A stretch of 64,000 nucleotides of DNA from Micavibrio sp. TMED27 (GCA_002167715.1 NHCG01000002.1:987-64986); one strand, 5' to 3'; positions 16,987 through 64,000 are shown, numbered from the stretch's first letter. A program made the numbers and translations. The notes: generated by a model from the sequence alone, not told the origin.

Positions 16987-17001
16987 TATCTCTAGTTTAA
17001 T

Positions 17002-17029
17002 TTCTGAATTTTCAGTATTTTCTGAAAAT
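17002..17029. promoter_or_regulatory. Two adjacent palindromes just upstream of the regulator gene (candidate operator)
   Basis: CTGAATTTTCAG (17004..17015) and ATTTTCTGAAAAT (17017..17029). They contain a direct repeat TTCTGAA (17002..17008 and 17020..17026) and lie 16-43 nt upstream of the ATG at 16986. Confidence 0.35.
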
Positions 17030-17271
17030 ATAGGTCAAAAGTGAGCGAAATCAATATAATTATGATAATTTTTTTATTTGAGTTTTTACTTTACCCCAAC
17101 GCACAAGCCGCAAAGTAGTCATTTAAAATGATTATATAAAGCAGATTAACAACTCTTAGTTACAATCGTGTTTGCTTAAACAAAAATGTCCCATGTAAAC
17201 ACAGGATGTTATAGTATTGATATCCTTGATATTAGAGAGTTAATTTTTTTAGAAAAAACAGGAATTCAATA

Positions 17272-21850: not shown

Positions 21851-21855
21851 ATATT

Positions 21856-22305: not shown

Positions 22306-22308
22306 AAT

Positions 22309-22992
22309 ATGAGTGCATCATCCAAAGAGCTTGAAAAGATATTATATACTATATCGCATGATTTGAGCGCACCACTAAGGCATATAAAATTTTTTGGTGA
22401 AATGCTGTTCCAAAAATTAGATGATAAGGTTGATGAAGAAGATCGCGAGTATCTTGAATATATGCAAGAGAGCGTTGTTAAGCTTGAAAAAATGATATCA
22501 GCATTAATGGATTATTCTCATCTTAGTGAAGGCGAAGAATTTCATGATGATTTTCAGTGCTTAGAAACAATCCACTCCGCCGCAGAAATTTTTGAGGAAG
22601 AGCTCAATAAGATCGGGGCTGAGATTGGCTATGAGAATATCCCCAATACAATCAAGGGGCATAAGGGCCAATTTTATCAGCTATTTTCTTACCTCATTCA
22701 TAATTCTATTTTGCACTACCGCGGCAATAATCCACTCAAAATACATATCTCTGCTGAAGAGTGTTCAGGTCAATGGCACTTTAAAGTTCAAGATAACGGC
22801 GAAGGTATACCAGAAAACCAGTATGAAAATGTATTTTCATTTTTCAAACGGCTTGATCCTCAAGATGGGCATACGGGTATGGGGATTGGCTTAACTCTTG
22901 CAAAAAAGATTATTGAAAACCACGGCGGTGCTATTTGGATCGAAACAAACAACCAAAATTTCTCAATCATCTTCACAATAAGCCCCTCTTAA
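22309..22992 (+). CDS. Soluble histidine kinase (HisKA + HATPase_c only)
   Basis: H-box ISHDLSAPLRHI, plus DNGEGI and GMGIGLTLAKKIIENHGG. No TM or sensor domain. Confidence 0.8.
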   Translation: MSASSKELEKILYTISHDLSAPLRHIKFFGEMLFQKLDDKVDEEDREYLEYMQESVVKLEKMISALMDYSHLSEGEEFHDDFQCLETIHSAAEIFEEELNKIGAEIGYENIPNTIKGHKGQFYQLFSYLIHNSILHYRGNNPLKIHISAEECSGQWHFKVQDNGEGIPENQYENVFSFFKRLDPQDGHTGMGIGLTLAKKIIENHGGAIWIETNNQNFSIIFTISPS

Positions 22993-23360
22993 AAATTATT
23001 TTTTTCGCGTAGCGGAACTGATTTTATTGCTATCAATATTTATATACTGTTTTACACTGTATATCGACAAAAACTAAGCTCAATAAAGATTATTGGCCAG
23101 TTCAATTCGTTTCGTATTTATAGTAAAAGTAGTGAGATATTTTTAAATTTACATCAGCATATAGTTTATATGAGGGCCGGTTTATAGTGATGGATATAAC
23201 GCAATTTATGTCCAATATCCTATCGAAAACTATAATTCATATTTATTTACAATGACTTAAGAGGTTAAATTACAGCAAATCCTGATAAAATTAACACTAG
23301 GTATGTCCGCAGCCATATGGAACATGTTATTAAAATATTCGGCTAATAGATTGATATAAT

Positions 23361-25421
23361 TTAATTATTCGAAGAAAAAACAGGCAGGCTTAGTGTGAAA
23401 CACACACCTTTACCAGATGCAGGGCGATTATATTCGATATGCCCTCCTAATATATCTGCGCTTTTTTTAACCATATATAATCCAAGCCCAGAACCAAAAG
23501 ACGCAGCCTTATGAAAACGTTGAAACATTTCAAAAAGCTGTGCTTCATCCTGCGGCTCAATCCCTAACCCATTATCCTCGACAGATAAATAAAAACTATT
23601 ATTCTTTTGAGAGCTAGAAACTTTGATATATGGCTCAGCTTCAGCAGGATCGTAATATTTAACAGCATTTGAAATTAAGTTATCAATGATGAGCTGCATA
23701 CGTATTTTGTGAGATTTAACTTGCCGGCACCCCATATCCGTTACAACTTTAATATTCTTCTCAACATGTATATGTCCTAATTTTTCAAAGCTTTGATCAA
23801 TTAGGGATTGTAGATCCAGATTTTGTGGCGCTTCCTTAATCTTACTAACAAATGTGAGTGATAGAATATCAGCAATCAGCGCATCCATTTGTGAGAGTGA
23901 TTTTTTCACGTTGCTATATGTATTTTGTGCCCCTGCAACATCTTCTGCTTTAAGCTGCGTTTGCATGTTCTCTAGATTTTGGATGGCCGATAATATAGGC
24001 GCCTTTAAATCATGCGCTGTTTGGTACGCAAATTGCTCCAACTCTGCATTCACCCCCCTTAGATCGTCAATTAAATGCTCCCTCTCATTCTTGGTTATAT
24101 TGCGGTAAATTTCATGACCAAGATATTGAGAGATTAAGTTTATGAAAGCCTTTTCACGTTCAGAAAATGGTTGAACTCGCGCATCTTTTGAAGAAAAATT
24201 TACCGTACCATATGGCCGATTATTAACAAAAATTTTCGTTCCTATGTAAGCATTTAAGCCAAAATGCTCATAACATGGATGAGTTTTAATTTCACTCATC
24301 CCTGCATTATGCCATGCCTGTGGGGTATCAGACTTAAAGGTAAAAGAACAGTAAGTATTCCCGAGTGAAAAGAGCTGATCTTGTTTTATATGTGTGTAAT
24401 CAGACGCAAATTTCACATGATAATCATCAAAATTAATCTCACTTATAATGCCGAGCTCTAGACCAAAATATTGTGTTCCAAGTTTAAGAATATCTTTCAT
24501 ACGCTTTTCGAACGGTCTATGTGCGTCAGATACAATAAGATGAATTTGATTCAGAACCTCTTCCTCTTGAAACTTTTCAATATGAATCTTTTTCAGAGCT
24601 TTTTCTTTTTCAATCAGCAATTTATTTAATTTTTGATATTGAACAGCTCTCGAAACTACGCTTTTTGCATTTTCAGGAGATAACTGGGATTTAACCATAT
24701 AATTATCCGCCCCATTCTTAATGGAGCTGACGGCAATTTCCTCGCTCCCTTGACCTGTCATGATAATGACCGGAAGAAACGGGTTATGTTGCTTTATGGT
24801 TTGAAGAACCGTAATACCATCTGCACCCGGTAATGAATAATCTAATAGAATGCAATGAAACTCATGCTCCTTAATAGTCTCTACAACATGTTGACTAGAG
24901 GATAATTCAACGAAATCATATTCAGTGTCTTTATTCTTACGCAAGGCGCGCATGCAGACCTCACGGTCATCTTCATTATCATCAATGACCAGCACTAATA
25001 GACGTTCATTTTCAAACTGCTCCGCGGCCATATGTTCATGAGTACGTACCGCTTTTTCAATCGTATATTTCAGTATTTCGGGTGTAGCTGTATTCGTTTC
25101 TACAAAATCACTCACACCATTTTTGAATTGATAGATAGCCATATCGGTATTGTCATGGTCACAAAGGATAATGACGGGCAAATCAGGCCTTAGATGAAAT
25201 AGTTTTTTGAAAAAATCATGATCGCTTTGCTGCTGCGTAGAATATGAGACAAGGATACAGTCATATGAACCTTGCTCAATATCTGTGAAAAAATCATTCT
25301 GGCTATCCTGAAAAATCAGAAAATACTCATGTGTAGATGAAGACTTTAGATAGCTTTGACACAAACGTACATCATCAATATTGTCGCTATAAACTAAAAT
25401 TTTATAATCAGTTTTCATCAT
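23361..25421 (-). CDS. Hybrid kinase: pseudo-receiver, receiver, GAF, HisKA, HATPase_c
   Basis: REC1 lacks the acceptor Asp (YDCILVSYS) and the conserved Lys. REC2 is canonical (VLVIDDNEDD, HCILLDYSLPGADG, MTGQG, VKS). A GAF-like middle region follows. H-box TAHDLKAPIL, plus DNGLGI and GSGLGLYMV. Confidence 0.85.
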   Translation of the reverse strand: MMKTDYKILVYSDNIDDVRLCQSYLKSSSTHEYFLIFQDSQNDFFTDIEQGSYDCILVSYSTQQQSDHDFFKKLFHLRPDLPVIILCDHDNTDMAIYQFKNGVSDFVETNTATPEILKYTIEKAVRTHEHMAAEQFENERLLVLVIDDNEDDREVCMRALRKNKDTEYDFVELSSSQHVVETIKEHEFHCILLDYSLPGADGITVLQTIKQHNPFLPVIIMTGQGSEEIAVSSIKNGADNYMVKSQLSPENAKSVVSRAVQYQKLNKLLIEKEKALKKIHIEKFQEEEVLNQIHLIVSDAHRPFEKRMKDILKLGTQYFGLELGIISEINFDDYHVKFASDYTHIKQDQLFSLGNTYCSFTFKSDTPQAWHNAGMSEIKTHPCYEHFGLNAYIGTKIFVNNRPYGTVNFSSKDARVQPFSEREKAFINLISQYLGHEIYRNITKNEREHLIDDLRGVNAELEQFAYQTAHDLKAPILSAIQNLENMQTQLKAEDVAGAQNTYSNVKKSLSQMDALIADILSLTFVSKIKEAPQNLDLQSLIDQSFEKLGHIHVEKNIKVVTDMGCRQVKSHKIRMQLIIDNLISNAVKYYDPAEAEPYIKVSSSQKNNSFYLSVEDNGLGIEPQDEAQLFEMFQRFHKAASFGSGLGLYMVKKSADILGGHIEYNRPASGKGVCFTLSLPVFSSNN

Positions 25422-25428
25422 TTATGAA

Positions 25429-25854
25429 TCATTTTTTAGGAAGAATAGCCACACCAAACCAATAATCTTTTATAGTTTTAACCGCCTCTGTTAAGCTTTC
25501 AAAGTTTACTGGTTTTTGAATATAGGTGCTTGCACCCAGTCTATAACACATTTCAATATCAATCGGATCCCCGGATGTTGTCAGGATAATGACTGGAATT
25601 TTTTTAGTTTTATCATTGTCTTTAATACGCTGTAACACTTGCCGGCCATCAATACCTGGCATATTTAAATCCAATAAAACTAAATCAGGCATCTGCTTGT
25701 TATTGTTTTCAAATAGATAGTCTAAAGCCTCTTGACCTGACTGGCACCAATGAACCGGATTTATAAAGTGATTTTTTTCTAAACTTCTCTGAGTCGCTTC
25801 AAAATCATCTTCGTTATCCTCAACTAATAAAATCATGGGGGGGGTCTTAGACAT
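25429..25854 (-). CDS. Stand-alone response-regulator receiver (Rcp1-like); the start may be ATG 25854 or ATG 25836
   Basis: MILLVEDNEDDFE, PDLVLLDLNMPGIDG, LTTS, YIQKP and a DYWFGVAILP tail. ATG 25854 overlaps the upstream kinase stop (ATGTCTAA). A C8 tract lies between the two candidate ATGs. Confidence 0.85.
   Translation of the reverse strand: MSKTPPMILLVEDNEDDFEATQRSLEKNHFINPVHWCQSGQEALDYLFENNNKQMPDLVLLDLNMPGIDGRQVLQRIKDNDKTKKIPVIILTTSGDPIDIEMCYRLGASTYIQKPVNFESLTEAVKTIKDYWFGVAILPKK
25837..25844 (-). repeat. Homopolymeric C8 tract (G8 on the plus strand) at codons 4-6 of the receiver gene
   Basis: The plus strand reads aatcat-GGGGGGGG-tcttag. The minus strand reads ATG TCT AAG ACC CCC CCC ATG. 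Confidence 0.95.
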
Positions 25855-27247
25855 TTTGCTGATCCATATTCAATGTAAAATAAAAAGTTGTATATTCACC
25901 TAGATTTGAGTCTACCCATATACGTCCATTATGACGCTCTACAATCTTCTTTACAAAAGTTAACCCCACGCCAGAGCCTCTTATTTTTTCATCTTCTTCA
26001 TTTAATCTCTTAAAAATGCGGAATACGCTTTCATAGAAAACAGGATCAATCCCAATGCCATTATCTTTAACGTAAAATAACAAAGTTTTATCCTCTTGAA
26101 TAGAAAAGCCAATTTCAATAATTTTAGTGTCCTTATCATTATACTTAATAGCATTCGTAATTAAATTTCTATAAAGCTCAGTGATTTTCGTTTTATCGCA
26201 TATAATCGTAGGTAGTTTTTGAGGGATGTGAATTTGTACATTTTCTTCCTCAATTGTATTTTCCATCAATGATATGATGTCTTTTATAACTTCATTGAGA
26301 TCTGTTTCCCTTATAGCTAATTCATGACGGCCTAATCTTGAAAAATACAACAGATCATCAATCAATTTTTCCATCCGCGCACATAGATGTATCATACGAT
26401 TTAAACGTTTTTGTGCCCCTTGATCCAGCTGCTCTCCATAATCTTCTTGTAAAAAAGACGCATTATTTGCCAGTCCGCGAAGTGGTTCCTTTAAATCATG
26501 TGATGCAATATAGGCAAAATCATCAAGTTCTTGATTGCTTATCTTTAGCTTAAAGTTTTTGTCTTCTATTTCCTTCATAGATTTAGCAATTAAGTATGTC
26601 ATAGGCTCAAAAATAAATGTGATTTCAAGCGTTAATATGACTAAACCAATAATGAATAATATAACGTGCAAATCCTTACTTTGCTGGACTCGTCCCAATG
26701 CCTCTTTTTCATATTGAGTAACCACCTGATCTAATTGAAACAATACTTTATCAAGCGCCAGTGCGACTAGTTGATCAACCTCTTTTGATCCTTTAGAAAC
26801 ATCTACTCCTGAGATTTTAAAGGTTTCCTTTATTTGCAAGGCAAGGTTAAAAAATTTATCCAGATTTTCATTTAAGCCTTCTGGTGCAAATATAAGCCGT
26901 TTTGTTTCTTCGCTAATTTGAATATTAAAACCATTCAAAGTCTCTTCACCGCTTAAATATTTATGGTTTTGTTTAAGAGTCTCTAAAGCACTAGAGAGCT
27001 TAGAAATATAATCTTGCCTCGCTTCATCTGTGATATTGTGATAGGCAATCATATGTGAAAGTAAGGCTATACGCTGCGAGAGCATACGCTGCTTACCACT
27101 CATATTAATGACTTTTGAGTCATCTGCGCCGCGCGCAACATGCTGATTAAAAACAAAGAAGCTAGCTATTAAAACAAAAGCAATCAATCCAACGGCTAAA
27201 ACATAACGCCGTTCTAATGATTGACTAATGTTTAGATTATGAAACAT
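25847..27247 (-). CDS. Membrane sensor histidine kinase with a PilJ/NarX-type periplasmic sensor module
   Basis: TM1 YVLAVGLIAFVLIASFFVF. Periplasmic INMSGKQRMLSQRIALLSHMIAY. TM2 LHVILFIIGLVILTLEITFIF. H-box IASHDLKEPLRGL, plus DNGIGI and GSGVGLTFV. Confidence 0.85.
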   Translation of the reverse strand: MFHNLNISQSLERRYVLAVGLIAFVLIASFFVFNQHVARGADDSKVINMSGKQRMLSQRIALLSHMIAYHNITDEARQDYISKLSSALETLKQNHKYLSGEETLNGFNIQISEETKRLIFAPEGLNENLDKFFNLALQIKETFKISGVDVSKGSKEVDQLVALALDKVLFQLDQVVTQYEKEALGRVQQSKDLHVILFIIGLVILTLEITFIFEPMTYLIAKSMKEIEDKNFKLKISNQELDDFAYIASHDLKEPLRGLANNASFLQEDYGEQLDQGAQKRLNRMIHLCARMEKLIDDLLYFSRLGRHELAIRETDLNEVIKDIISLMENTIEEENVQIHIPQKLPTIICDKTKITELYRNLITNAIKYNDKDTKIIEIGFSIQEDKTLLFYVKDNGIGIDPVFYESVFRIFKRLNEEDEKIRGSGVGLTFVKKIVERHNGRIWVDSNLGEYTTFYFTLNMDQQNV

Positions 27248-28256
27248 CTTTTCTAATATGTTCTTCTTTTAAAAAAGTTTGGGATTCTATGTCGTTTGCT
27301 GCTTTTAATCCAACAACATCATCCCACTGCGATGCAGGAATGCCATTACATGGTTTACGAATCTCTAAGTTTTCCTCACTAAAGGTTTCGCCCGCCTTTA
27401 TATCTTTTTTCACATAGATAGACTGGAAGAATAGCTTTCTAAAATCAACAAATTCTTTAGCTTTTTCATCCTTATCAAGCGGGTTGGCACGCATCTCTTC
27501 AGCAAAACGCACCCCCTCGACCATACGTTTTAAATCCTCTGGATCAAGGGAAGCCGGCATATCAGGGCCCGGCATTTGGTAGCTCATACATATATGAACC
27601 TCTATCACAGAGGCCCCTTCCCATGCCGCAGCGATTGCAGGATAAATTGTTCCTGAGTGATCGGATAAACCTACATATGTACCGAAGCGCTCCTTATATT
27701 CATTCATAACATTCAGACCAACTTGCGAAGGTGGCGTTGGATACTGTGTCGTACATTGCGTAATGGCAACATCAATGTCATATGATTTTAGAATATTAAC
27801 CGCATCTTCTATTTCCTTCATTGGACTCATGCCTGTAGATATAATAACGGGCAGTCCTGTTTTTCCGACTTTGTGAAGCATCGGCACATTCGAGGTCTCG
27901 CCTGAAGAGATTTTCCAAACCGGAACACCAATTTCTTCAAGCATATCTATAGCCTGCAATGAAAAGGCCGACGCCATAAAAACAAGGCCTTTTGACGCAG
28001 CATAGTCGGCTAATTCCTTCCATTGCTCTGGTTCAAAGCATGTGCGCTCCCAATATTCAGAGCGCGTTTTATAACCATCTATGGGCACACGAAATTTTTC
28101 GTCTGGTGTACTTTCATACTTGGGAAGATGAATTTGAAACTTCACCGCGTCACAACCCGCATCAGCAGCAACATTGATATGCGATTTTGCCAGCATAAAA
28201 CTCGCATCATGAGCCTGCGCGACTTCCGCGATTATAAAGCATTTTTCATCAAACAT
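27237..28256 (-). CDS. NeuB-family nonulosonate synthase, divergent subtype (with C-terminal SAF domain)
   Basis: IIAEVAQAHDASFMLAKSHINVAADAGCDAVKFQ, KISSGE, GLSDHSG, IEVHI and a SAF-like C-terminus. The stop overlaps the downstream kinase start by 11 nt. Confidence 0.85.
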   Translation of the reverse strand: MFDEKCFIIAEVAQAHDASFMLAKSHINVAADAGCDAVKFQIHLPKYESTPDEKFRVPIDGYKTRSEYWERTCFEPEQWKELADYAASKGLVFMASAFSLQAIDMLEEIGVPVWKISSGETSNVPMLHKVGKTGLPVIISTGMSPMKEIEDAVNILKSYDIDVAITQCTTQYPTPPSQVGLNVMNEYKERFGTYVGLSDHSGTIYPAIAAAWEGASVIEVHICMSYQMPGPDMPASLDPEDLKRMVEGVRFAEEMRANPLDKDEKAKEFVDFRKLFFQSIYVKKDIKAGETFSEENLEIRKPCNGIPASQWDDVVGLKAANDIESQTFLKEEHIRKDVS

Positions 28257-28264
28257 AGTATTCC

Positions 28265-29227
28265 CTATTTATTATTTTTGGCCATGCGGGCGTTTGGAAA
28301 AGCCAAATGTGATTTATTAAAGAGAGCGCCTGTAAAGTCATTAGCAACTGGCGCTTGAACCGCGCGTTCCTCGCGGCCCCATAAAGGCATCATTTTTGAA
28401 AAGGCACTATAGAAATGTAGATGTAATAAAAGTCTTGGTTTTTGAGCTGTTCTACTTCCGTAATGATAACAACGGCATGTATCAATAAACGCAACTGTTC
28501 CTGGCTTACCAACCACCTGCTTTGCTTGATCCTCTTGAGCATATTGATAAACAATATCATCTTCAAGTTTTGTGTTTCTGCGCTGAATTTCATTTTTCTG
28601 ATGAAGTGTATTATATACGTTATCACTCACATCAGCTGGTAAGATTGTTAAAGGTCCTGTCTCACTCGTTATTTCATCGACAGGGAGGAAACATTTTATC
28701 TGCTTAATATCCTCTCCATCCAAGTGATAAAGCTGACTTCCTTTTGCACGTGCATCTTTGTTAGGTGAATACCAAAGAGCAGCAGAACTTAATATTGGGA
28801 AGGACCCTAAATAATCTGAAATTGGCCTTAAAATTTCCGGGCTTAATACCAGCTTTAAGATTGCTTCATTTTCAGGAGATGTGAGATCCAGTTTATGATT
28901 CAGAAGAAAAGCTTTCTTCGAAGTTTTTTCTTTTTCTTCCCAATCAATTTGATTGGCCTGCTGCTTGGCGTTTGCAATCGCATTCATAACCAATTCATTT
29001 TTGCTCATATCTGCTATGAGATAGCCAAGCTGATCTTCAATTTCGTATTCAGGTGTTGTTTTTGGAATTTTATTTAATAGGTCTTTTCTATGTTTATATT
29101 CACCTTGATTGAGTTTAGATGAAACTTTTTCATAGAAATGAAGCCAAGGTAAAGTGTCAGGAATAACAAGGCCCGGATAATTTGGGTAATGTTTAATCTG
29201 ACTAAGAGTTGCACGAAGTTTTTTCAT
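28265..29227 (-). CDS. PhyH-like Fe(II)/2-oxoglutarate dioxygenase (putative)
   Basis: HxD...H arrangement: LYHLDGED ... CRCYHYGSR. The ATG at 29227 (MKKLRATL) has a GGGGTG SD; the listed 29293 start would overlap the upstream gene. Confidence 0.5.
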   Translation of the reverse strand: MKKLRATLSQIKHYPNYPGLVIPDTLPWLHFYEKVSSKLNQGEYKHRKDLLNKIPKTTPEYEIEDQLGYLIADMSKNELVMNAIANAKQQANQIDWEEKEKTSKKAFLLNHKLDLTSPENEAILKLVLSPEILRPISDYLGSFPILSSAALWYSPNKDARAKGSQLYHLDGEDIKQIKCFLPVDEITSETGPLTILPADVSDNVYNTLHQKNEIQRRNTKLEDDIVYQYAQEDQAKQVVGKPGTVAFIDTCRCYHYGSRTAQKPRLLLHLHFYSAFSKMMPLWGREERAVQAPVANDFTGALFNKSHLAFPNARMAKNNK

Positions 29228-29267
29228 AGATTCACCCCTATATAAATCAAAGCAATACACATAACTA

Positions 29268-30275
29268 CTAGACAAGAAACTGGTTAATAACAACCTTTAA
29301 TTTATCTATACTGCCTTCTACGGCCTGCATTAATTGGCCTAACTTGTCATCAGTTAACGTCTCGGCTTGTAGAGCCTGCTTGAATTCCGGAACTGAATAA
29401 CTTGTAACGAGCGGGACTAAAGCACGGCTGGTCAATGGGCATAAATTTGTTTGGAGTAAATTAGGCTGGAGTCCAATAACGTGCTGGCCTGCAAATAGTC
29501 CCTCAACCATGATAGCAGAAAACATGGAAACCATCGTACCGCAACTATTGAGTGTATCTTCATCCGTAAATGGAAACCGGATAGAGCCACTCATATTATT
29601 TGGTAGTTTTTTTTGTGAAGGATGCGGCTTATAAACCAGCTCTTCTATTAAATCAGGATTTTGTTTTTGAAAGTCCTTTAGAAAATTCCAAACGCTCACT
29701 TCATCAAATCCAAGACCTTTCATAGAAGGAATTTCAGATAAAGGTTGCGAAGCAAAAACCACTCGAGATCTTGATTGAGGAGATGTCTTTATCTTGATAC
29801 GTTCTTCCCATGCTGGATGCCCAGTACAATGGATAATGTTTTCGGGAAGGCCTTCTGCAACAGCCTTGTCTTTTGCCCATTCATCAATAACAGTTACCGC
29901 GTCAGGAAGAGAGCCTTTTGGGTTAGACTCAAATATACGGGAGGCGTAATCATTCCATGAATCTATAACCTGAATATGGGGAATTTGATATTTCTTCGCA
30001 AATGTAGATATATCCAAAATAGGTTGTAAGCGGCATGCCGAATTAATGATGAGCTTAGGCGGATAATGACGAAAAACATGTTCTATATCTGATTGCTCTT
30101 CCCAAAAAGGCAGTAAAAAGCTTTGCAAAGTCGTTTTAAGTTTTTCAGACAGAGCCTTATTTGCAGAATATATACACCACTCTTTATAGCCTTTGTTAAT
30201 CCAATCCTTCCATAAAGGTGCAAGATATGCAGCTTGCCCCGGTTGAGCAATTACAAAGATTACGTATTTAGTCAC
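29268..30275 (-). CDS. Hypothetical GT-B-like protein with a K-P-H-P motif
   Basis: Rossmann-like pattern in the C-terminal half: RVVFASQP ... LVYKPHPSQ ... MVSMFSAIMVEGLFAGQHVIGL. No family assigned. Confidence 0.4.
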   Translation of the reverse strand: MTKYVIFVIAQPGQAAYLAPLWKDWINKGYKEWCIYSANKALSEKLKTTLQSFLLPFWEEQSDIEHVFRHYPPKLIINSACRLQPILDISTFAKKYQIPHIQVIDSWNDYASRIFESNPKGSLPDAVTVIDEWAKDKAVAEGLPENIIHCTGHPAWEERIKIKTSPQSRSRVVFASQPLSEIPSMKGLGFDEVSVWNFLKDFQKQNPDLIEELVYKPHPSQKKLPNNMSGSIRFPFTDEDTLNSCGTMVSMFSAIMVEGLFAGQHVIGLQPNLLQTNLCPLTSRALVPLVTSYSVPEFKQALQAETLTDDKLGQLMQAVEGSIDKLKVVINQFLV

Positions 30276-31215
30276 TGAAAAAAGCCTTTATTTCTTCAGC
30301 GATTTGAAGACTCATACGTTTTTGAGCATCATTTGTTGATGCCGCGATATGTGGCGTAAAAAGAATTCGTGGGTGATTAATCAAAGCATGAGAAAAATCA
30401 TGTTGCTCTGGCGCGGCATTATATGGCGGTTCCGGATGAATAACATCAAGGGCCGCAGATGCTATAACCCCATTATCAAGCGCCTCGATGAGGTCCTTTT
30501 TATTCACAATATCGCCGCGTGCAGTATTAATTAAAAAAGAACCTTTTTTCATTCGATTAAAAACAGATTCATTAACCATATTGCTTGTTTTATCCGTACT
30601 AGGAACATGCAATGTCAGAACGTCAATATGCTCAAGCATTTCATCTATTGTTTCAACCATCTTCCCGCCGAGATCCGCAAATATGGTTTCACGGCGCATA
30701 GTTCGATCACAACCATATAATTTACAACCAAATGGCGACAACCTTCTAGCAACAGCCATACCAGTATTACCTAAGCCAACAATTCCTATACTCAATTGAG
30801 AAAGCTCACGCCCTTCATAAAGGTGTCTTCGAAAATCATTATTCTGAACCGCTGTATTTATCTCTGGCATTCGGCGAATAAGGTTCATAATCAAACCAAT
30901 AGTAAACTCCGCTGTTGAGATTGTATTACCAGTCGGCGTTGTAATTAACTTAATGCCTTTTTCTTCCAGAAGGTCGCAATCAATATTATCGACCCCTACC
31001 CCTGCACGTGCAACGATTTTCAGTGCTTGAGCGCGCTCCAAAAACTCGCGGTCTACTTGAATATTGCTCTTTAGAATAATGACATCATAATCATGAATAA
31101 CAGATAGTAATTCAGCTCTAGATAAACCTTCAAAATGCTCAACATTTGATGTCAGAGCCAGAACCTCTAAACCTGCATCATGGATAGTTTCTAAAACTGC
31201 AATTTTCACAGACAT
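30268..31215 (-). CDS. D-isomer-specific 2-hydroxyacid dehydrogenase (phosphoglycerate-dehydrogenase-like)
   Basis: NAD motif GIVGLGNTGMAVARRL, plus NTARGDIV, ALDV and TPHIAAST (catalytic His). Confidence 0.85.
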   Translation of the reverse strand: MSVKIAVLETIHDAGLEVLALTSNVEHFEGLSRAELLSVIHDYDVIILKSNIQVDREFLERAQALKIVARAGVGVDNIDCDLLEEKGIKLITTPTGNTISTAEFTIGLIMNLIRRMPEINTAVQNNDFRRHLYEGRELSQLSIGIVGLGNTGMAVARRLSPFGCKLYGCDRTMRRETIFADLGGKMVETIDEMLEHIDVLTLHVPSTDKTSNMVNESVFNRMKKGSFLINTARGDIVNKKDLIEALDNGVIASAALDVIHPEPPYNAAPEQHDFSHALINHPRILFTPHIAASTNDAQKRMSLQIAEEIKAFFSD

Positions 31216-31218
31216 TCG

Positions 31219-32262
31219 CTATACCGCCTTCAACATCTTATAAGGGATAACGTGCTTTTCTTCCGGACTTATTCGCTGCGAAGTTTCTTCTCCTTTTGCA
31301 AGGCTAATAATATCATCTAAGAGCGGGATACCTGCTGCTATTGAAATAGAAAAACTACCGCTTGGCCGAGGATTTATTTCCAGTATATATGCCGTGCCAT
31401 CGACGTCATACATGGCATCAATATCTTGTAACCATGATAAATTAAATTTCTTAATTACAATTTCAGCCATTTTAATAAGCTGCGGGTCATTTAAAAGGAT
31501 ATGCCCCTCATTTGGTGCCGCTGAATGCACTCTGCGTCTGGGGATTACTTGAATAACTCGTCCATCATGAGAAACCATATCGATATCATGAACGGGCTCT
31601 GCTAGGCGCTGCATAACCACTACAGGAAACTTTCCCTCATAAAAATTCGTGAAATCTTTTTTATAAGTGTTTAACCCCATACGAAGTTCACGTGCATTTG
31701 GAACTGTTTCAACTTCCTGATATTGATCACTGATGATAAGGATATCACGCCCCCCCCTAGCGACAGATGGCTTTAAAACTATACCATGTGGACATTGCAC
31801 ATATACTTCATCAAGAGCGTCTAACAATTCGTTTTGATCAGAGACTTCTTTCCATACAGGAACATTTAAACCTTCAATCTTTGATATAGCTCTATAGGTT
31901 TCAGCCTTATTAGCCAGAATCTCTAGTGTTTGATAGTCAGGACAAGCAACTTGACACCCCTGCTTTTCAAAAAGTTCTCTATGTTTTGCCAGCATGAGAG
32001 CCTCTTCATCCGAACCAGGCAAAATCAGCTGCACAGCTTCATTCGAAACAATATTTAATACTGATGAAATATAAGAAGGATCATCTGCAAATGGCACGGT
32101 GTAAAATGCATCAGCAAAATATTTTCCAGTGGCTTTTTCACTGGCATCTACACCAACCACACGTACGTCGTGACGCTGACTTTTTTGAGCAAACGTCATA
32201 GTTTGCGCAGACATTTCTCCTCCTACGGAGGTCATCATTAAAGAAAATTTCTTAATGCTCAT
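31219..32262 (-). CDS. ATP-grasp ligase (carbamoyl-phosphate-synthase-L-like fold)
   Basis: VLKPSVARGGRDI and YILEINPRPSGS, with size and pattern typical of ATP-grasp enzymes. Contains a G8 tract. Confidence 0.8.
   Translation of the reverse strand: MSIKKFSLMMTSVGGEMSAQTMTFAQKSQRHDVRVVGVDASEKATGKYFADAFYTVPFADDPSYISSVLNIVSNEAVQLILPGSDEEALMLAKHRELFEKQGCQVACPDYQTLEILANKAETYRAISKIEGLNVPVWKEVSDQNELLDALDEVYVQCPHGIVLKPSVARGGRDILIISDQYQEVETVPNARELRMGLNTYKKDFTNFYEGKFPVVVMQRLAEPVHDIDMVSHDGRVIQVIPRRRVHSAAPNEGHILLNDPQLIKMAEIVIKKFNLSWLQDIDAMYDVDGTAYILEINPRPSGSFSISIAAGIPLLDDIISLAKGEETSQRISPEEKHVIPYKMLKAV
31750..31757 (-). repeat. Homopolymeric G8 tract (C8 on the plus strand) in the middle of the ATP-grasp CDS
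   Basis: The minus strand reads GCT AGG GGG GGG CGT GAT = ARGGRD. Confidence 0.95.
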
Positions 32263-33287
32263 AATTTATATATATCCTGCTCAGTTATGGGCTCATTCTT
32301 TGTCAGCGCTTTTCTCGTTCTTTGCCCTAAAACAAAATCGTATTGTTTAGCTTCCATTCCACGCTTATCGGGTAAAGCCCGTTTAAGTGCTACATTATTT
32401 TCATCTAAAATTTCGTCCGCTTGAATATCACGGCGCGCGACTAAAGTACGTAAATATTTAACGGCATTATTCGCTAGATTACCTTCAACACTCTTTGTCG
32501 CTTGACCTAAAATAATTTCGGCTTCACGGACTTTTTTAACTAAAAGTGCCATCTCGGTTGGCTCTAATGACAACTTATGATCAAAACTAGGCCGTGTTTT
32601 ATCAAGGGTAAAATGTTTTTCAATGATGTGTGCGCCTGCAAACACAGCTGCTGCCGCAATATCTGTACCTTCAGTATGATCAGAGAACCCTACTGGCACA
32701 TTATAACGTTCTTGCATAGCTCTTATCGTGCTTAAATTTAATGTTTCATAGGGTGCAGGATAGATAGATGTACATTGAAAAAGACCAAGCTGTTTCATAT
32801 CACCATAATCTTTTACCCATGACACAGCTTCATCAATTTGTTCTTCATTGGCCATTCCAGTCGACATGAGAACTGGCTTGCCTGTTTGGGCCGTTTTTTT
32901 AATGATCACTGGATTTGTCATCATGCCAGATGAAATTTTATGTCCTGCTGGATTTAATTTATTAACCCATTCAAGAGTAATAGGATCCGGTGAAGTCGTA
33001 AAAGGATCAATCTTCAAGTCCCGGGCATATTGAAACATTTGCGCTGTTTCTGATTTACTCAGCTCACACGTTTTAAACAGTTCATAACTTTCGGTTCCTG
33101 GGACATAATTTTCTTCAGGATCACATGTCTGCAACTTAATAGCATCCGCGCCGGCATCGGCTGCAGCTTTTATCATGCGGGCGCAATCTTCAACACTCCC
33201 CTCATGATTTACCCCAATCTCAGCGATTATATATGCTGGGTTTCCAGGCCCTATTTTTTTTGTACCAAATTGAAAAGGCTTAACCAT
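32259..33287 (-). CDS. NeuB-family nonulosonate synthase, canonical subtype (probable pseudaminate synthase given the adjacent PseG-like gene)
   Basis: IIAEIGVNHEGSVEDCARMIKAAADAGADAIKLQT, KISSGM, GFSDHTEG, IEKHF and a SAF-like C-terminus. Confidence 0.85.
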   Translation of the reverse strand: MVKPFQFGTKKIGPGNPAYIIAEIGVNHEGSVEDCARMIKAAADAGADAIKLQTCDPEENYVPGTESYELFKTCELSKSETAQMFQYARDLKIDPFTTSPDPITLEWVNKLNPAGHKISSGMMTNPVIIKKTAQTGKPVLMSTGMANEEQIDEAVSWVKDYGDMKQLGLFQCTSIYPAPYETLNLSTIRAMQERYNVPVGFSDHTEGTDIAAAAVFAGAHIIEKHFTLDKTRPSFDHKLSLEPTEMALLVKKVREAEIILGQATKSVEGNLANNAVKYLRTLVARRDIQADEILDENNVALKRALPDKRGMEAKQYDFVLGQRTRKALTKNEPITEQDIYKL

Positions 33288-34239
33288 TTGCGTTCTTTGC
33301 CCAAGTCGTTATTTCATTTGCTATGCGCTGAGCACCATTACCATCTATCAGCTTTCTTGAACAGTTAGAAAGTTGATTTAGGGCCATTGGCGTGAGGGTA
33401 TCTATTAAATTTAAAAACTCTGTATCAATAATATGCTCAATTTTCCCAGCATTGATAATAACCCCTAACGCGCTCAATTCTTCGACTTGAGCGCTTTGAT
33501 TTTCAGCCGTAATAATCGCCAAATAAGGAATTCCGGCCGCACAGCTTTCCAAAACACTGACTCCGCCAGAGCCAATAAACAAATCAGTTTGAGCCATAAT
33601 CTCAATCAAGTTCGAAGGCGCATGATAAAACTGTGCATCATGACGCGTGCGATCTACATATTCTTTAATCGCTGCATATGCTTCGTTTTGCGCTCCGCAA
33701 ACAACATTCAGCTTTAATGGCACTTCTGTTGATTCTAATATGCTTAATATTTTAGTCGTCGCCCCTTTGCTGTCCTTTTGACCAAAACATAAAGTTATTC
33801 GGCTCAAAACAGGAGACGGACTTCTTTCAATTTTTGCAAATTCTGGATTTAATAGCGCGTATTCAAAACCAGAAACATTAGCTCCGACATGAGCGCTATA
33901 TGCAATACTATGTTTTGGAAACCCTGATTTATTTACGGTATCAATTAAACCAGCAACCGGATAAGAACAGCGATTTAAAAACATATAATCTGGGTGATAA
34001 TGATCAAGCCAAAGCCCTTCATACTCACCTGTCACAGAATTAACGTCATCAAAATATTCAAAGCCATGCTCAGACAATACAGGAAACCAATGAGCTGCAT
34101 GTTGGTCTAGCAAGAAATCTATGTCTTTGCCGTTGGCTTGCATAGTTTTTGCCAGTTCTAAACTCCGCATAACATGACCACCACCAAATTGAGGGGCACT
34201 AGCAACATAAAACAACCACGCTTTTTGTGTATTCTTCAT
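33280..34239 (-). CDS. pseG: PseG-like UDP-sugar hydrolase (GT-B, GT28 C-terminal type)
   Basis: MKNTQKAWLFYVASAPQFGGGHVMRSLELAKTM matches the PseG N-terminal GxGHxxR motif. C-terminal LFIGSGGVSVLESCAAGIP. The ATG at 34239 is preferred; the listed 34368 start leaves only 20 nt to the divergent gene. Confidence 0.6.
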   Translation of the reverse strand: MKNTQKAWLFYVASAPQFGGGHVMRSLELAKTMQANGKDIDFLLDQHAAHWFPVLSEHGFEYFDDVNSVTGEYEGLWLDHYHPDYMFLNRCSYPVAGLIDTVNKSGFPKHSIAYSAHVGANVSGFEYALLNPEFAKIERSPSPVLSRITLCFGQKDSKGATTKILSILESTEVPLKLNVVCGAQNEAYAAIKEYVDRTRHDAQFYHAPSNLIEIMAQTDLFIGSGGVSVLESCAAGIPYLAIITAENQSAQVEELSALGVIINAGKIEHIIDTEFLNLIDTLTPMALNQLSNCSRKLIDGNGAQRIANEITTWAKNANG

Positions 34240-34279
34240 ACTTACATAGATATCAGAAAGCCTTAGGATACATAAGCTA

Positions 34280-34353
34280 AAATTGATTGTAATCAATTTG
34301 GAAAAACAAAAGTTACTTATTGTGAAACATTGATTTTTTACGAGATATCTCGT
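34280..34353. promoter_or_regulatory. Two perfect palindromes in the divergent promoter region
   Basis: AAATTGATT-gt-AATCAATTT (34280..34299) and ACGAGATATCTCGT (34340..34353). Confidence 0.4.
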
Positions 34354-34388
34354 AGATAAGCTATACAACCTAATTTAGTGAGAACAAT

Positions 34389-59676: not shown

Positions 59677-61956
59677 ATGAAAATTCTTTTCGTCTGCAGA
59701 TTATATTCAGGATTTGAAGAAAGCCTGCAGAATGGTGTTTGGAAGCCCAAAGGGGCCCCTACAATTGCTAGGATGATTGAACATTTAGACGCATCCAAAG
59801 ATCATGAATTAGAATTAATTTTCACACAAAAAGGGGCTAGCGATACTCTTTATCCCTCCCATGTTGAAATAGAGGGGCTTGCTCTCAAACTTCATGTGCT
59901 AAGGGGGCATAACCATTTACCGGCTTGGCTAGGGAAATTTAGAGAAAAGCTCAGTGACCTGTATCAAGCGAGCCAAATTATATGGGCGTATCATAGGATC
60001 AAACCCGACATCGTTTATTGTGACCGCGTGAATATTTTCCCCGCTTCCTTACTTGCCCGCTTCACAAATGCACGTGTCATTTGGCGTGTTATGGGCGTTT
60101 TAGAAGAAATGCATCAAGCGGTGAAATCAGATCACTGGCGTGCGGCACTTTCTCGTTTTATGTGGAGAAGCCCGTTTAAATCTGTTATCTGCACCTTGGA
60201 TGGTTCAGGCGGTGGGCCGTGGATGGATCACGTCTTATCTAAAAACACTCCTCGTCATTTACTTCTAAACGGTGTGAATAAAAACTTAAAAGAGGAACAG
60301 GTCAATCTACTTCCTCATAAGGGCGTAAAAATGCTATTTGTTGGGCGCCTAGAAGCGCTCAAAGGTATAGAAGAGTTCGTGGATGCCTTCTACAGCGCAG
60401 CCGAGACGCATAAAAATTTACATGCTGTGATCGCAGGTGATGGCAGTTTGAAAAATAAATTGATAGAAGATGCAAAGAACAAAGGTTATGCGGATCGTGT
60501 ACATTTCCTTGGCAGTATTAGCGCGCCTGAACTTAAATATACTCGTCAAAATACGGACTTTTATGTTTCACTCAATAAACAAGGCAATCTTAGTAATGTA
60601 AATCTTGAGGCATTATCGGATCACTTACCAACAATCGTTCCATGTTCTCATACAGACAAAGGTATAGACATAGATACGGACAAGCTTGTTCCTGATGATG
60701 TGTTTTACCGTTTTGGTACAGTCGGTGATACTCAGGCGCTCTCTAATGCTATATCACATCTCATGGACGAAAAAGTACGCGCATCGTATAGGCAGGCCGC
60801 ACAAAAATGCGCTGCACATATTCTACCGAGCTGGACTACCCGTATTGAGCAGGAACTACAAATTTATGAAGATACAAAGCCCTATGATTTTGCTCTGACG
60901 ATCGCGGATTTAGGCTCTGGCGGCGCGCAAAAAATCGCAGTTTCACTCATGAATGATCTAAACCAAGCCGGTAAAAAAATAGCTCTTATTACCCTTAAAG
61001 ATAATAAGAGTGACTTTCATAAATTACCGCAAAATATCAAACGCATTACCCTAGAACATTGTAATGAATATAAAGGCATACTAGCCAATCTACTTCGTAT
61101 ATATAAAATTCGAAAAGCCCTTAAAGACACTGGTGCAAAATGCGTCATAAGTTTTATTGCACCAACCAATATATTATGCGTATGGGCCGCTTTGGGTTTA
61201 AATAATCGTCTCATTATTTCAGAGCGCAATGACCCTACTCGCCAGAGCTTTGGCCAAATGTGGGATAAACTTAGACGCCTCAGCTACCGCTTCGCTGATA
61301 GAGTTACAGCCAATAGTCAAAATGCAGTTGAAAGCCTTAAAGCTTATGTCCCAGAGCATAAACTTCATTATGTTCCCAATGCATTAACGCCGCCGCCTAA
61401 ACTGAATAAGCAAAAAGATAAAACAATTCTGATTGTGGGGCGTTTACATGAGCAAAAATCTCACCAAACGCTTCTGAAAGCTTTTGCAAAAGTGCACCAA
61501 GATCATCCGGACTGGACACTCATTATCGCTGGAGAAGGTCCACTTGATAATCAGCTCAAAGAACAAGCCGCGCAATTAAATATTGCGGACGCTACTACAT
61601 TTACTGGCGTTGTGAAAAACCCATATAGTCTCTATGAAACCGCTTCCATTTTTGTATTACCATCGATCCATGAAGGCACTCCCAATGCCCTTTTAGAGGC
61701 AATGAGTTGTTCATGTGCACCAATCATAAGTGATGCATGCGAAGGGGCGATGCCCTTTGTAAAGCATGAAGAAAGCGGACTTATTTTCAAGACAGGTGAT
61801 TATCAACAACTCGCTGATCAGCTTAACTCTCTCATTTCAACGCCTGAAAAGATAGTTCAGTATTCAACCGCAGCAAAAGAACATACAAAACCATTATATT
61901 CTCGCTCAACAATTGAGATATGGGATGATGCTATTAATGCAAAGGGGCAATCATGA
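59677..61956 (+). CDS. Two-domain glycosyltransferase (two complete GT4-like units fused)
   Basis: Unit 1 begins MKILFVCRLY and includes FVGRLEALKG. Unit 2 begins FALTIADLGSGGAQKIA and includes IVGRLHEQKSH and PSIHEGTPNALLEAMSCSCAPI (EX7E). Confidence 0.8.
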   Translation: MKILFVCRLYSGFEESLQNGVWKPKGAPTIARMIEHLDASKDHELELIFTQKGASDTLYPSHVEIEGLALKLHVLRGHNHLPAWLGKFREKLSDLYQASQIIWAYHRIKPDIVYCDRVNIFPASLLARFTNARVIWRVMGVLEEMHQAVKSDHWRAALSRFMWRSPFKSVICTLDGSGGGPWMDHVLSKNTPRHLLLNGVNKNLKEEQVNLLPHKGVKMLFVGRLEALKGIEEFVDAFYSAAETHKNLHAVIAGDGSLKNKLIEDAKNKGYADRVHFLGSISAPELKYTRQNTDFYVSLNKQGNLSNVNLEALSDHLPTIVPCSHTDKGIDIDTDKLVPDDVFYRFGTVGDTQALSNAISHLMDEKVRASYRQAAQKCAAHILPSWTTRIEQELQIYEDTKPYDFALTIADLGSGGAQKIAVSLMNDLNQAGKKIALITLKDNKSDFHKLPQNIKRITLEHCNEYKGILANLLRIYKIRKALKDTGAKCVISFIAPTNILCVWAALGLNNRLIISERNDPTRQSFGQMWDKLRRLSYRFADRVTANSQNAVESLKAYVPEHKLHYVPNALTPPPKLNKQKDKTILIVGRLHEQKSHQTLLKAFAKVHQDHPDWTLIIAGEGPLDNQLKEQAAQLNIADATTFTGVVKNPYSLYETASIFVLPSIHEGTPNALLEAMSCSCAPIISDACEGAMPFVKHEESGLIFKTGDYQQLADQLNSLISTPEKIVQYSTAAKEHTKPLYSRSTIEIWDDAINAKGQS

Positions 61957-63026
61957 TCAATATACATGTACTTAGTCCCGGTTTCACAAATCCAAATAGC
62001 ACGGCCTTTCTTATGCCATTTATCATCTTTCGCTCTGCACTTAAAGAAGCGGGATATCACATTCGGATTTTTTCTGACTACAAAGATGGTATAGAGGCAT
62101 GCGACTATCTCTTCATTGATAGTAAAACACATAAGAAAGATTGGAACGCACGTTACGATCAAACATTAGAAAAACTCTCATATTATAATGCAAAAACCAA
62201 AGTGATCTGGTGCGATCAAGCCGATAGTAGCGGTACATTTCTTGGTCAAGTTCTTCCCCATATCCATAAATATTTAAAAGCACAGCTCTTAAAAGACAGA
62301 AACCAGTACTTAAAATCGCATTATGCCTCGCGTATATATGCACAATATTACCATGAAAAATATGGTATCCAGGATGAACAGGCTTATATTCAAGAACCTG
62401 TAAAAGACCAAAAAGACCTATCCAAGCTCGATATTTCATGGAATTCCGGTTTAATGAATTATGGGCTTTTTGGCCCCTACTCTCAGCGCTTAAGAGAACA
62501 TATCCCAATTAACGCGCTTCTATATTTTGCAAAACCTCTTAGAAAAGCAAGCGCGGAACGTCCAATGGACATCACGTGCCGCATGGGTATTTCCTATCCG
62601 CGTGAAACAATGCGTTTTCAACGTTTAAAAATACGAGAACTCTTAAAAGATCACCTTCCTACTAATAAATTATCGAGACGTGCCTATTTCAAAGAACTGT
62701 GTGAAAGTAAAATCTGCATTTCTCCCTTTGGTTTAGGCGAAATCACGCTCAAGGATTTTGAATGCTTTTTAACAGGCTCATTATTGTTAAAACCACAAAT
62801 GAACCATATGCAAACATGGCCAAACTTATACGAAGACAAAGTCACATACATAGCCCATAGCTGGGACTTAGATGATGTGCTGGAACAAATAGAATGGGCG
62901 CTCAATCATGAAAAAGAGCGTATAGAAATAGCACAGAACGGACAAAATCGTTACCTCGACTACACACTAGGTTTAGGAGCTAGCGATCGCTTTGTCGAAC
63001 ATTTCAAACAGATAATAACAACTTAA
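61953..63026 (+). CDS. Putative glycosyltransferase (CgeB-like C-terminal domain)
   Basis: KICISPFGLGEITLKDFECFLTGSLLLKP. This is only weak family recognition. Confidence 0.4.
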   Translation: MINIHVLSPGFTNPNSTAFLMPFIIFRSALKEAGYHIRIFSDYKDGIEACDYLFIDSKTHKKDWNARYDQTLEKLSYYNAKTKVIWCDQADSSGTFLGQVLPHIHKYLKAQLLKDRNQYLKSHYASRIYAQYYHEKYGIQDEQAYIQEPVKDQKDLSKLDISWNSGLMNYGLFGPYSQRLREHIPINALLYFAKPLRKASAERPMDITCRMGISYPRETMRFQRLKIRELLKDHLPTNKLSRRAYFKELCESKICISPFGLGEITLKDFECFLTGSLLLKPQMNHMQTWPNLYEDKVTYIAHSWDLDDVLEQIEWALNHEKERIEIAQNGQNRYLDYTLGLGASDRFVEHFKQIITT

Positions 63027-64000
63027 GCAGTAAGCATGTCTTCGAACTGCTTCATCACGCGCGGCAGGGAAAAAGCATCCGGCAAAAGAGAATGTGTATT
63101 TTGATTGTGTTTTGTTTTTTGCATCTGCTGAATAAATTCGTTCATATCCTGCGTTATCACGAGGTCTCCATCGCGGGTATATTTACCAATATCAGATACC
63201 CCGCCAGCATCCACAATAGCAATAGAAGGCACTGCACTACAAAGTGCTTCTAAGACCACATTGGGCATCCCCTCCCAGCGTGAGGGTAATAACAAACAAT
63301 CGGCGTAAGATGCACTCATCCAGGGTTTATCGTCATAGCCTTTCAAAATGACCTTATTTGATAGGTCATATTTAGCAATTAAAGCTTCAAGATCAGCTCT
63401 AAAAGGCCCCTCACCTATAATCTCAAGTGTCCAATCAAAATCTGGCTTAAAATCAACCACCATATGTTCAATCAGCCTATCGTAGCCTTTCTCATAGGAT
63501 AAACGTCCAACACATAAAAAACGAATTGGATCACTTGGATTGCTAGGTGTACGTGTTTTGAATTTAACGCGCGCTTGGTCAACTGGATTAAACAAAATCT
63601 CATGATTCTTGGTAGAGATTTTTACTAAACCTTTAAACTCATCAATCATTTGTGAGCAATTACTAATCACTTTATTAGCAAGCGGATACAACCCCTTATA
63701 CACGAACCAGCACGCACGACCTTTAAGACCATAGCCGTTTAAGATCGAGGATGGCAAAGCCGCTTCGCGAACAAACACTTTAACCCTCGGAAAAAAAATC
63801 TTCATCAAAATCGCAAGCGCATTACTATGCACCATTGTTGTGAAGATGACATCTGGCTGAACCTCTTTCACCAGTTTAAGCATTTTAAAAACGCTAGATT
63901 TAATCGACGAACAATCTAGAGAATAAAAAGGAATCTCATCATCAATCCAATCACGAAATGGACCCTCATTTTTTACAACAACGAATTCAGGCTCAAAACG
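63023..64000 (-). CDS. GT4-family glycosyltransferase, N-terminus beyond the window end
   Basis: The frame stays open upstream of the listed ATG 63883 as far as nt 64000 (RFEPEFVVVKNEGPFRDWIDDEIPFYSLDCSSIKSSVFKMLKLV...). C-terminal CVGRLSYEKGYD and PSRWEGMPNVVLEALCSAVP (EX7E). Confidence 0.8.
   Translation of the reverse strand, partial: RFEPEFVVVKNEGPFRDWIDDEIPFYSLDCSSIKSSVFKMLKLVKEVQPDVIFTTMVHSNALAILMKIFFPRVKVFVREAALPSSILNGYGLKGRACWFVYKGLYPLANKVISNCSQMIDEFKGLVKISTKNHEILFNPVDQARVKFKTRTPSNPSDPIRFLCVGRLSYEKGYDRLIEHMVVDFKPDFDWTLEIIGEGPFRADLEALIAKYDLSNKVILKGYDDKPWMSASYADCLLLPSRWEGMPNVVLEALCSAVPSIAIVDAGGVSDIGKYTRDGDLVITQDMNEFIQQMQKTKHNQNTHSLLPDAFSLPRVMKQFEDMLTA

Follow-up and report, generated by a model that had tools for sequence, protein, structure and literature searches.

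The window analysed here is the whole 64,000-nucleotide (nt) stretch of DNA from Micavibrio sp. TMED27 (GCA_002167715.1 NHCG01000002.1:987-64986), and the subject is a run of ten co-directional genes on its minus strand, from 34239 to 23361, in which genes of nonulosonate biosynthesis are followed directly by genes of a phosphorelay. The ten genes are probably three modules that were made contiguous in one species-level lineage by an operon fusion that is incidental and tolerated. The first module would be a strain-variable block of six genes, from a PseG-like to a PhyH-like gene, that serves nonulosonate tailoring and forms the left edge of a surface-glycan island of ~45 kb; the second would be NeuB-2, the gene of a second nonulosonate synthase, which elsewhere is the last gene of an (epimerase-AsnB-)UGDH-GT4-NeuB operon, on the far side of the homologous island; and the third would be a phosphorelay cassette, which here carries an orphan periplasmic PilJ-type sensor. 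NeuB-2 would have moved ~35 kb and landed directly on the start of the kinase gene, RNA polymerase transcribing NeuB-2 would run on into the cassette, and translation of the kinase would be coupled to the termination of NeuB-2 translation.

An open reading frame (ORF) listing and Pfam and NCBIfam scans delimited the ten genes, and these reproduced the order and identities given in an earlier note on this DNA: PseG-like, NeuB-1, ATP-grasp, 2-hydroxyacid dehydrogenase, a protein that the note termed GT-B-like, PhyH-like, NeuB-2, PilJ-type sensor kinase, receiver and hybrid kinase. With the start codons chosen in that note, the nine junctions measure -8, -4, +3, -8, +40, +8, -11, -8 and +7 nt (overlaps being negative), exactly as it had reported, and the gene callers applied to same-species contigs agreed with its starts for the PseG-like (319 residues) and PhyH-like (320 residues) genes. 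The overlap of 8 nt between the kinase and receiver genes holds with the note's start only; same-species gene calls begin the receiver at the second ATG, 25836 (MILLVEDN, 135 residues), 10 nt past the kinase stop, and this is most likely the receiver start. A run of eight C residues occupies 25837-25844, inside the gap between the kinase stop and this probable start; it was eight long in 10/10 same-species contigs, with no sign of slipped-strand variation in the assemblies. Ten co-directional genes in a run are not in themselves unusual in bacteria. Those described here share one strand, are separated by short distances (-11 to +40 nt), and have no convincing intrinsic terminator among them, which are the features by which an operon is recognised.

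The sugar and signalling genes meet in an 11-nt overlap of NeuB-2 and the kinase gene (27237..27247, minus strand). The junction reads AAAAG-ATG-TTT-CAT-AA, or ...AGA AAA GAT GTT TCA TAA in the frame of NeuB-2, and the kinase ATG sits within the final codons of NeuB-2, in GAT GTT. The N-terminus that it opens, MFHNLNISQSLERRYVLAVGLIAFVLIASFFVF, is a normal short cytoplasmic stub followed by a membrane helix, and the next in-frame start would cut into that helix. The overlap excludes a terminator between these two genes, and the earlier observation that no terminator-like hairpin separates the sugar genes from the signalling genes was borne out: no G+C-rich hairpin with a U-run was found, the sole terminator-like match there (27339..27322) contains two wobble pairs and ends in a tail poor in T, and the overall count of matches equalled the shuffle expectation. 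No sigma-70-like site or terminator rose above chance level in 27237-27400, and promoter and terminator scans of the window and of a second strain haplotype (haplotype B, below) gave match counts equal to the shuffle expectation. A TTTCCA-18-AATAAT match at 28300..28271 was considered as a promoter and rejected as evidence, because it would leave almost no leader and would cut the ribosome-binding site of NeuB-2. Folding of 27180-27350 (z = -2.0) yields no more than a weak A/U stem, which covers the start of the kinase gene, and no obvious Shine-Dalgarno sequence precedes the kinase, receiver or hybrid kinase starts. Given the overlap, the missing Shine-Dalgarno sequence and the A/U hairpin over the kinase start, read-through and translational coupling are the default expectation; transcription of NeuB-2 likely runs on into the cassette, and translation of the kinase is probably coupled to NeuB-2 termination. 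Since three successive starts have no obvious ribosome-binding site, translation of the whole cassette probably relies on ribosomes that terminate and reinitiate.

The junction, ATGTTTCATAA, is identical in 10/10 same-species contigs, which share ~97% nucleotide identity and were taken from independent assemblies (ENA, JGI, NCBI and Logan). NeuB-2 lies upstream of the kinase gene in 9/9 contigs that reach that far, the tenth (L118) beginning 33 nt before the kinase start. The contigs L116, L117, L207, L208 and L209 match the window and constitute haplotype A. Haplotype B is represented by L119, L120 and L121, which come from three independent sources and are 100% identical to one another in their upstream sequence; by blastn it aligns to the window at ~97% from 15844 to 28308, that is, to 52 nt before the NeuB-2 start, and diverges completely beyond. 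The boundary between the haplotypes can thus be placed at 28257..28308 on the minus strand, with homology to the window only downstream of 28308. Haplotype B keeps NeuB-2, the kinase, the receiver and the hybrid kinase, and its six upstream sugar genes are replaced by 300 nt of non-coding sequence and then two small paralogous genes (L119:44-502 and L119:557-1120; 152 and 187 residues), of which the second begins like a signal peptide; neither turned up in this genome. Within the species, therefore, the linkage of NeuB-2 and kinase does not depend on the six upstream sugar genes. A second mosaic boundary lies at 28213-28300, where L207 has 0 mismatches to the window over 28213-33500 and 15 inside NeuB-2. 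Because of haplotype B and the L207 boundary, the six genes are seen to form a swappable block, and NeuB-2 to travel with the kinases. For haplotype A, transcription would start in the divergent region at 34.3 kb; for haplotype B, the start would lie within the 300-nt intergenic stretch.

NeuB-2 belongs to a distinct clade, marked in the alignment by the motif EVAQAHD[AG]S, and its orthologues (75-84% amino-acid identity) were found in four other contexts. At three of these (L112, L224/L225 and L226/L227) the orthologue is the last gene after a GT4 gene and has convergent glycan genes immediately next to it, in the order UGDH-GT4-NeuB in L224 and epimerase-AsnB-UGDH-GT4-NeuB in L226; at the fourth (L223) it stands alone. 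The next gene 3' of the orthologue is on the opposite strand in all four contexts, the neighbours being glycan genes in three and an aminotransferase gene in the fourth. No kinase or receiver gene was found near NeuB at any of 18 NeuB loci, none follows the NeuB-2 orthologues, and the genome carrying L112 has no orthologue of the hybrid kinase. The genome under study has an epimerase-AsnB-UGDH-GT4 operon of its own at 63-69 kb, which runs past the end of the window and ends with the GT4 gene (63023..64000, minus strand; assigned from the ORFs of L228 and Pfam), which shares 52% identity with the GT4 before NeuB in L224. Converging on it is a glycan-island gene of 357 residues (61953..63026, plus strand), which shares 61% identity with the gene convergent on NeuB in L224. 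The stops of these two genes overlap (63023/63026), and the NeuB slot behind GT4 is therefore empty: the convergence point is occupied by the NeuB-2 orthologue in L224 and L226, and the gene is absent at the same point here. Because the same operon is present ~35 kb away with its NeuB slot empty, NeuB-2 was probably relocated over that distance, from behind GT4 to the kinase side. Base composition agrees with relocation, since the guanine-plus-cytosine (GC) content of NeuB-2 (42.4%) resembles that of the GT4 gene (40.3%) and a double GT4 gene (41.7%) of the island; the six-gene block has ~40% GC and the kinase gene 33.5%. The NeuB-2 protein has four extra residues (HIRK) before the ancestral ...E-E-D-V-x end, which make its tail longer by four than in most orthologues, and this tail, with the junction that it encodes, looks like a scar. 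No similarity was evident by eye between the 52 nt upstream of NeuB-2 and the 3' end of GT4, where a trace of the relocation was sought.

The signalling genes have a separate history. Ninety loci with the closest kinase cores were surveyed for gene order, and 99 kinase loci were checked for sugar genes. An Rcp-like receiver gene lies directly 3' of the kinase gene in 83/90 loci, followed by the gene of a REC-containing kinase in 62/90, and the three together are a widespread, self-contained cassette. In 60 of the 75 scorable loci, the gene 5' of the cassette either is divergent from it or lies at a distance of over 30 nt. Tight co-directional neighbours (15 loci) include helix-turn-helix (HTH)-REC regulators, kinases, YfiR/DUF4154 proteins and a PAS protein; ten of the 15 are annotated, eight as signalling proteins and two as unknown, with no recognisable biosynthetic enzyme. 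Nonulosonate genes were found in the flanks of none of the kinase loci (0/99), and from the seven sugar genes only a 2-hydroxyacid dehydrogenase, an unrelated one, occurs near the cassette, in 4/99 loci.

The cassette of this genome begins with a membrane sensor kinase of the PilJ-HisKA-HATPase type (25847..27247, minus strand; Pfam and translation), composed of a transmembrane helix, a periplasmic PilJ-type domain, a further transmembrane helix, a phytochrome-type HisKA domain (ASHDLKEPLR) and an HATPase domain. In its core, the kinase shares 65-71% identity with PAS kinases from many Alphaproteobacteria and from other phyla; a full-length search of 5.8 billion proteins returned the kinase's own 90% cluster as the sole full-length match and otherwise matches to the kinase core. 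The sensor region (residues 1-232), searched alone, gave nothing above 35% identity outside the species cluster, and a PDB sequence search with the sensor domain gave no meaningful match; a single-sequence AlphaFold model of this domain (mean predicted local distance difference test, pLDDT, 39; predicted template modelling score, pTM, 0.25) was unusable. Thirteen kb from the PilJ-domain kinase, at 12437-13354, is a stand-alone protein of 305 residues built from a pair of PilJ-type domains (E = 9e-41), which may be a periplasmic partner of the sensor or its paralogue. The Rcp-like single-domain receiver (25429..25854, minus strand; Response_reg 8.5e-26; probable start at ATG 25836) has RcpB as its closest solved structure (1K66, E = 2e-38), with RcpA and Rcp1 also ranking high, and its motifs EDNEDD, LLDLNMPG, LTTS and QKP supply the acidic pocket, Asp, Thr and Lys of Rcp-type receivers. 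The last gene encodes a cytoplasmic hybrid kinase, REC-REC-GAF-HisKA-HATPase (23361..25421, minus strand; Pfam, with residues read from the translation), whose first REC is a pseudo-receiver with Ser in place of the acceptor Asp and whose second is canonical. Both kinases have the HisKA acceptor His and an HATPase_c domain, with the H-boxes ASHDLKEPL and TAHDLKAPI. By domain logic, the relay would run from the periplasmic PilJ kinase to the Rcp-like receiver, to the hybrid kinase's second REC, or to both, and then from the GAF-gated kinase to an output regulator encoded elsewhere; domain scans found no output domain or glycan-related regulator within the cluster. Beyond the hybrid kinase gene, a convergent intergenic region of 368 nt (22993-23360) separates it from a plus-strand kinase core gene; this region is AT-rich and hypervariable between strains, with 69-73 mismatches in the bin 23000-23499 versus ~10 in adjoining bins, and its fold is not significant (z = +0.5).

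The kinase and NeuB-2 were sought in 40 related genomes (genus, family and order), and the hybrid kinase and a neighbouring solute-binding protein in the 20 from the genus. Orthologues were found neither for the kinase (best full-length match 31%) nor for NeuB-2 (best 36%), and the hybrid kinase gave kinase-core matches only, with no orthologue, in the 20 genus genomes. Because relatives have no orthologues, the adjacency is traceable within the species and otherwise module by module. The earlier note had read the sugar pathway and the phosphorelay as co-transcribed, with a regulatory link between them as a possible meaning, and had named absence of the adjacency from relatives as a refutation; the adjacency is absent from relatives, at the 18 NeuB loci and the 99 kinase loci alike, it does not recur in independent lineages, and the idea of a designed unit is not upheld. 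Beyond the adjacency itself, no comparative evidence points to regulatory cross-talk between glycan synthesis and the phosphorelay. A literature search found no nonulosonate operon linked to histidine kinases, the one candidate paper treating both in unrelated passages, and none of the papers searched was found to describe the fusion of a nonulosonate synthase with such a cassette; the parts are ordinary members of known families.

Several observations weigh against an incidental fusion, or limit what can be said for it. The fusion has been kept through ~3% nucleotide divergence, and replacement of the other sugar genes has left NeuB-2 next to the kinases; selection for linkage would give both of these as well. 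The direction of relocation is suggested by parsimony from only three related contexts, the lack of orthologues in relatives makes synteny testable only module by module, and the haplotype B contigs stop 1.1-1.4 kb upstream of NeuB-2, which limits the view of that haplotype. In addition, a promoter for the cassette could lie inside NeuB-2. This last point leads to an arrangement of two transcription units, in which the cassette is served mainly by a promoter in the 3' part of NeuB-2, and Rho, for instance, attenuates the sugar transcripts ahead of the kinase gene or inside it, leaving the two without meaningful co-expression. The cassette begins its own unit in ~80% of related loci and would have arrived with promoter-dependent regulation, GC content drops by nine points at the junction, and the last 170 nt around the junction are weakly structured, all of which would suit such an arrangement; however, nothing resembling a promoter or terminator exceeds chance between 27237 and 27400, the original upstream promoter would have been displaced if NeuB-2 was inserted at the kinase start, and the poor ribosome-binding sites favour coupling. 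Two units are thus unlikely, yet deserve to be kept in mind. A chimeric join in a metagenome-assembled genome, as might be feared at a strain-variable region of a draft in 22 contigs, has virtually no chance of explaining the junction, which is identical in at least nine independent assemblies (ENA, JGI, NCBI and Logan); the nine effectively refute it.

It is also unlikely, and somewhat less likely than two transcription units, that the linkage reflects a genuine functional coupling, in which the relay either senses a periplasmic or cytoplasmic cue tied to the nonulosonate glycan or acts on the pathway as its control, and selection keeps it on one transcript with NeuB-2. Confinement of the adjacency to one species-level lineage argues against such coupling, as do the lack of any kinase or receiver at other NeuB loci and of nonulosonate genes at other cassettes, and the tight upstream partners of cassettes elsewhere, of which 8/10 are signalling genes, 2/10 are unknown and none is recognisably biosynthetic. 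Both the change in GC content and the scarred tail suggest that the junction is recent, the cluster encodes no output domain or glycan-related regulator, and no paper was found that links nonulosonate operons with histidine kinases. Set against these are the overlap, invariant in all same-species contigs; the link between NeuB-2 and kinase, which haplotype B retains despite its replaced sugar genes; the downstream starts, whose lack of obvious ribosome-binding sites suggests dependence on upstream translation; and the periplasmic sensor domain, which has no close relatives to indicate its ligand. That the relocation itself was selected, either because expression of the PilJ relay is thereby strictly proportional to nonulosonate synthesis or because the relay senses a nonulosonate-related periplasmic cue and feeds back on the glycan, is likewise judged quite improbable. 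Altogether, the evidence argues for three modules of different origin joined by an incidental and tolerated fusion.

The remaining features of the run are the sugar genes, all on the minus strand. They are preceded by a divergent intergenic region (34240..34388; ORF map and same-species gene calls) between the PseG-like gene and a plus-strand FAD oxidoreductase gene, which is the probable promoter region of the sugar genes in this haplotype. The PseG-like GT-B protein (33280..34239) scores 124.1 bits with PseG TIGR03590, below the cut-off of 153.55, and has a weak Glyco_tran_28_C match; the longest ORF of its gene begins at TTG 34368. It is followed by the nonulosonate synthase NeuB-1 (32259..33287; PF03102 6.6e-69, SAF 1.5e-10), an ATP-grasp ligase (31219..32262; ATPgrasp_Ter and PylC-like_N matches) and a D-2-hydroxyacid (PGDH-like) dehydrogenase (30268..31215; 2-Hacid_dh_C 5.8e-54; PGDH TIGR01327 298 bits, below the cut-off). 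A run of eight G residues at 31750-31757 in the ATP-grasp gene is strain-specific, L117 and L209 having GGGGTGGT, a synonymous change, and L207 having the full run. The protein of 335 residues termed GT-B-like in the earlier note (29268..30275) has no Pfam or NCBIfam match, and the next protein is weakly PhyH-like (28265..29227; PhyH E = 0.0029, below the cut-off), its longest ORF beginning at 29293 and its last 14 codons lying in sequence common to both haplotypes.

NeuB-2 (27237..28256; PF03102 6.5e-68) and NeuB-1 are the only two NeuB genes of the genome, and both encode the NeuB TIM barrel (PF03102 ~1e-68) and a C-terminal SAF domain (1e-9 to 1e-10). NeuB-2 scores 307 bits with NeuB/NnaB TIGR03569 (cut-off 399.65) and 228 with PseI TIGR03586 (cut-off 340.25), and NeuB-1 scores 277 and 250 bits with the same models; since both proteins fall below the NeuB and PseI equivalog cut-offs, the sugar product is not assignable. 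The catalytic and metal-binding residues of Neisseria meningitidis NeuB, which we take to be Glu25, Lys53, Gln55, Lys129, His215, Glu234, His236 and Asp247, were compared by phmmer alignment of NeuB-2 with 1XUU/4IPJ, and the E, K.Q, KI.SGE, SDH, E.H and PGPD positions are all identical. NeuB-2 departs from the N. meningitidis enzyme in the CTNIYP motif, where Asn is replaced by Thr, and in the Arg of the RPG loop, which is shifted by one position (RKP) and is clade-invariant. Synonymous to non-synonymous codon differences of 22:1, 17:2 and 15:1 indicate strong purifying selection, and NeuB-2 looks functional and, by its residues, catalytically intact.

RpoB assigns the draft genome (2.5 Mb, 22 contigs, 96% complete) to an uncultured alphaproteobacterium, with the best match in an Alphaproteobacteria metagenome-assembled genome (86%), followed by Azospirillum (75%), and its proteins turn up in Tara and other marine metagenomes. 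The ten-gene run spans the seam between two regions. The region at 12-23 kb is dense in signalling genes, among them the double PilJ-type protein, receivers, a CHASE-PAS kinase and a kinase core. The surface-glycan island at 28-69 kb encodes PseB/PseC-like proteins, two CMP-transferases, a hydrolysing 2-epimerase, formyl- and acetyltransferases, PIG-L deacetylases, an ABC exporter and GT4 transferases. Within the island, at 44279-46306, a fusion of a CMP-sugar cytidylyltransferase and a class-III aminotransferase (675 residues) is followed by GNAT and PIG-L genes, and L224 has this fusion too, with its neighbours in the same order. Synteny with L224 and L226, which come from other organisms, extends over the far edge of the island (61953-64000 of the window, and L228, C20:63900-76000): GFO, hexapeptide transferase, DegT, double GT4 and the 357-residue protein are convergent on GT4-UGDH-AsnB-epimerase. 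On the signalling side, a solute-binding protein is encoded just upstream of the CHASE-PAS kinase, receiver and kinase core genes (17272-22992), and no orthologue of it was found in the 20 same-genus genomes; from this, the whole 12-69 kb stretch looks accessory at the genus level.

If the fusion is incidental, it provides a clean, datable natural example of operon growth, in which a biosynthetic gene is shifted by 35 kb and lands on the start codon of an unrelated signalling cassette, the fusion is tolerated through ~3% divergence, the vacated site can still be recognised and a protein tail shows the scar; it also cautions that tight gene packing in strain-variable glycan islands is poor ground for inferring function. 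If the linkage was selected, it would, if true, be the first case of a nonulosonate synthase wired to a phosphorelay. Practical impact is modest either way, since the organism is uncultured.

Placement of signalling genes among glycan genes has a precedent in the eps locus of Myxococcus xanthus, where the single-domain receiver EpsW and EpsF are encoded among polysaccharide genes, in an association that is conserved and genetically tested. The run described here resembles it in having receiver and kinase genes among glycan biosynthesis genes, and the eps locus shows that such placement can be functional; however, the proteins are not EpsW or EpsF orthologues, because they score far below the cut-offs of the corresponding models (NCBIfam NF041866, 47.8 bits versus 200; NF041880, 104 and 99 bits versus 900), and the association here appears restricted to a single species. 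Islands for nonulosonic acids (pseudaminic, legionaminic and neuraminic acid) decorate flagellin or surface glycan in Campylobacter jejuni, Helicobacter pylori and Aeromonas caviae. Like these, the window has SAF-containing synthases of the NeuB family, tailoring enzymes in a strain-variable island, and PseB/PseC-, PseG- and PseH-like (GNAT) genes, CMP-transferases and a hydrolysing 2-epimerase; unlike them, it has no protein that reaches the equivalog cut-off of a NeuB, PseI or PseG model, it has two synthases of different clades and no recognised Maf or FlmG-type transferase, and one synthase gene overlaps a histidine kinase gene. The signalling genes are best compared with the phytochrome kinase/Rcp pairs, Cph1-Rcp1 of Synechocystis and CphA-RcpA and CphB-RcpB of Calothrix (PDB 1I3C, 1K68 and 1K66), with which they share an H-box of the SHDLKEPLR type and a receiver gene directly after the kinase gene. 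In contrast to those pairs, the input domain here is of the periplasmic PilJ type instead of PAS-GAF-PHY, with no chromophore-binding module, and the unit, having no free upstream region, begins inside a biosynthetic gene.

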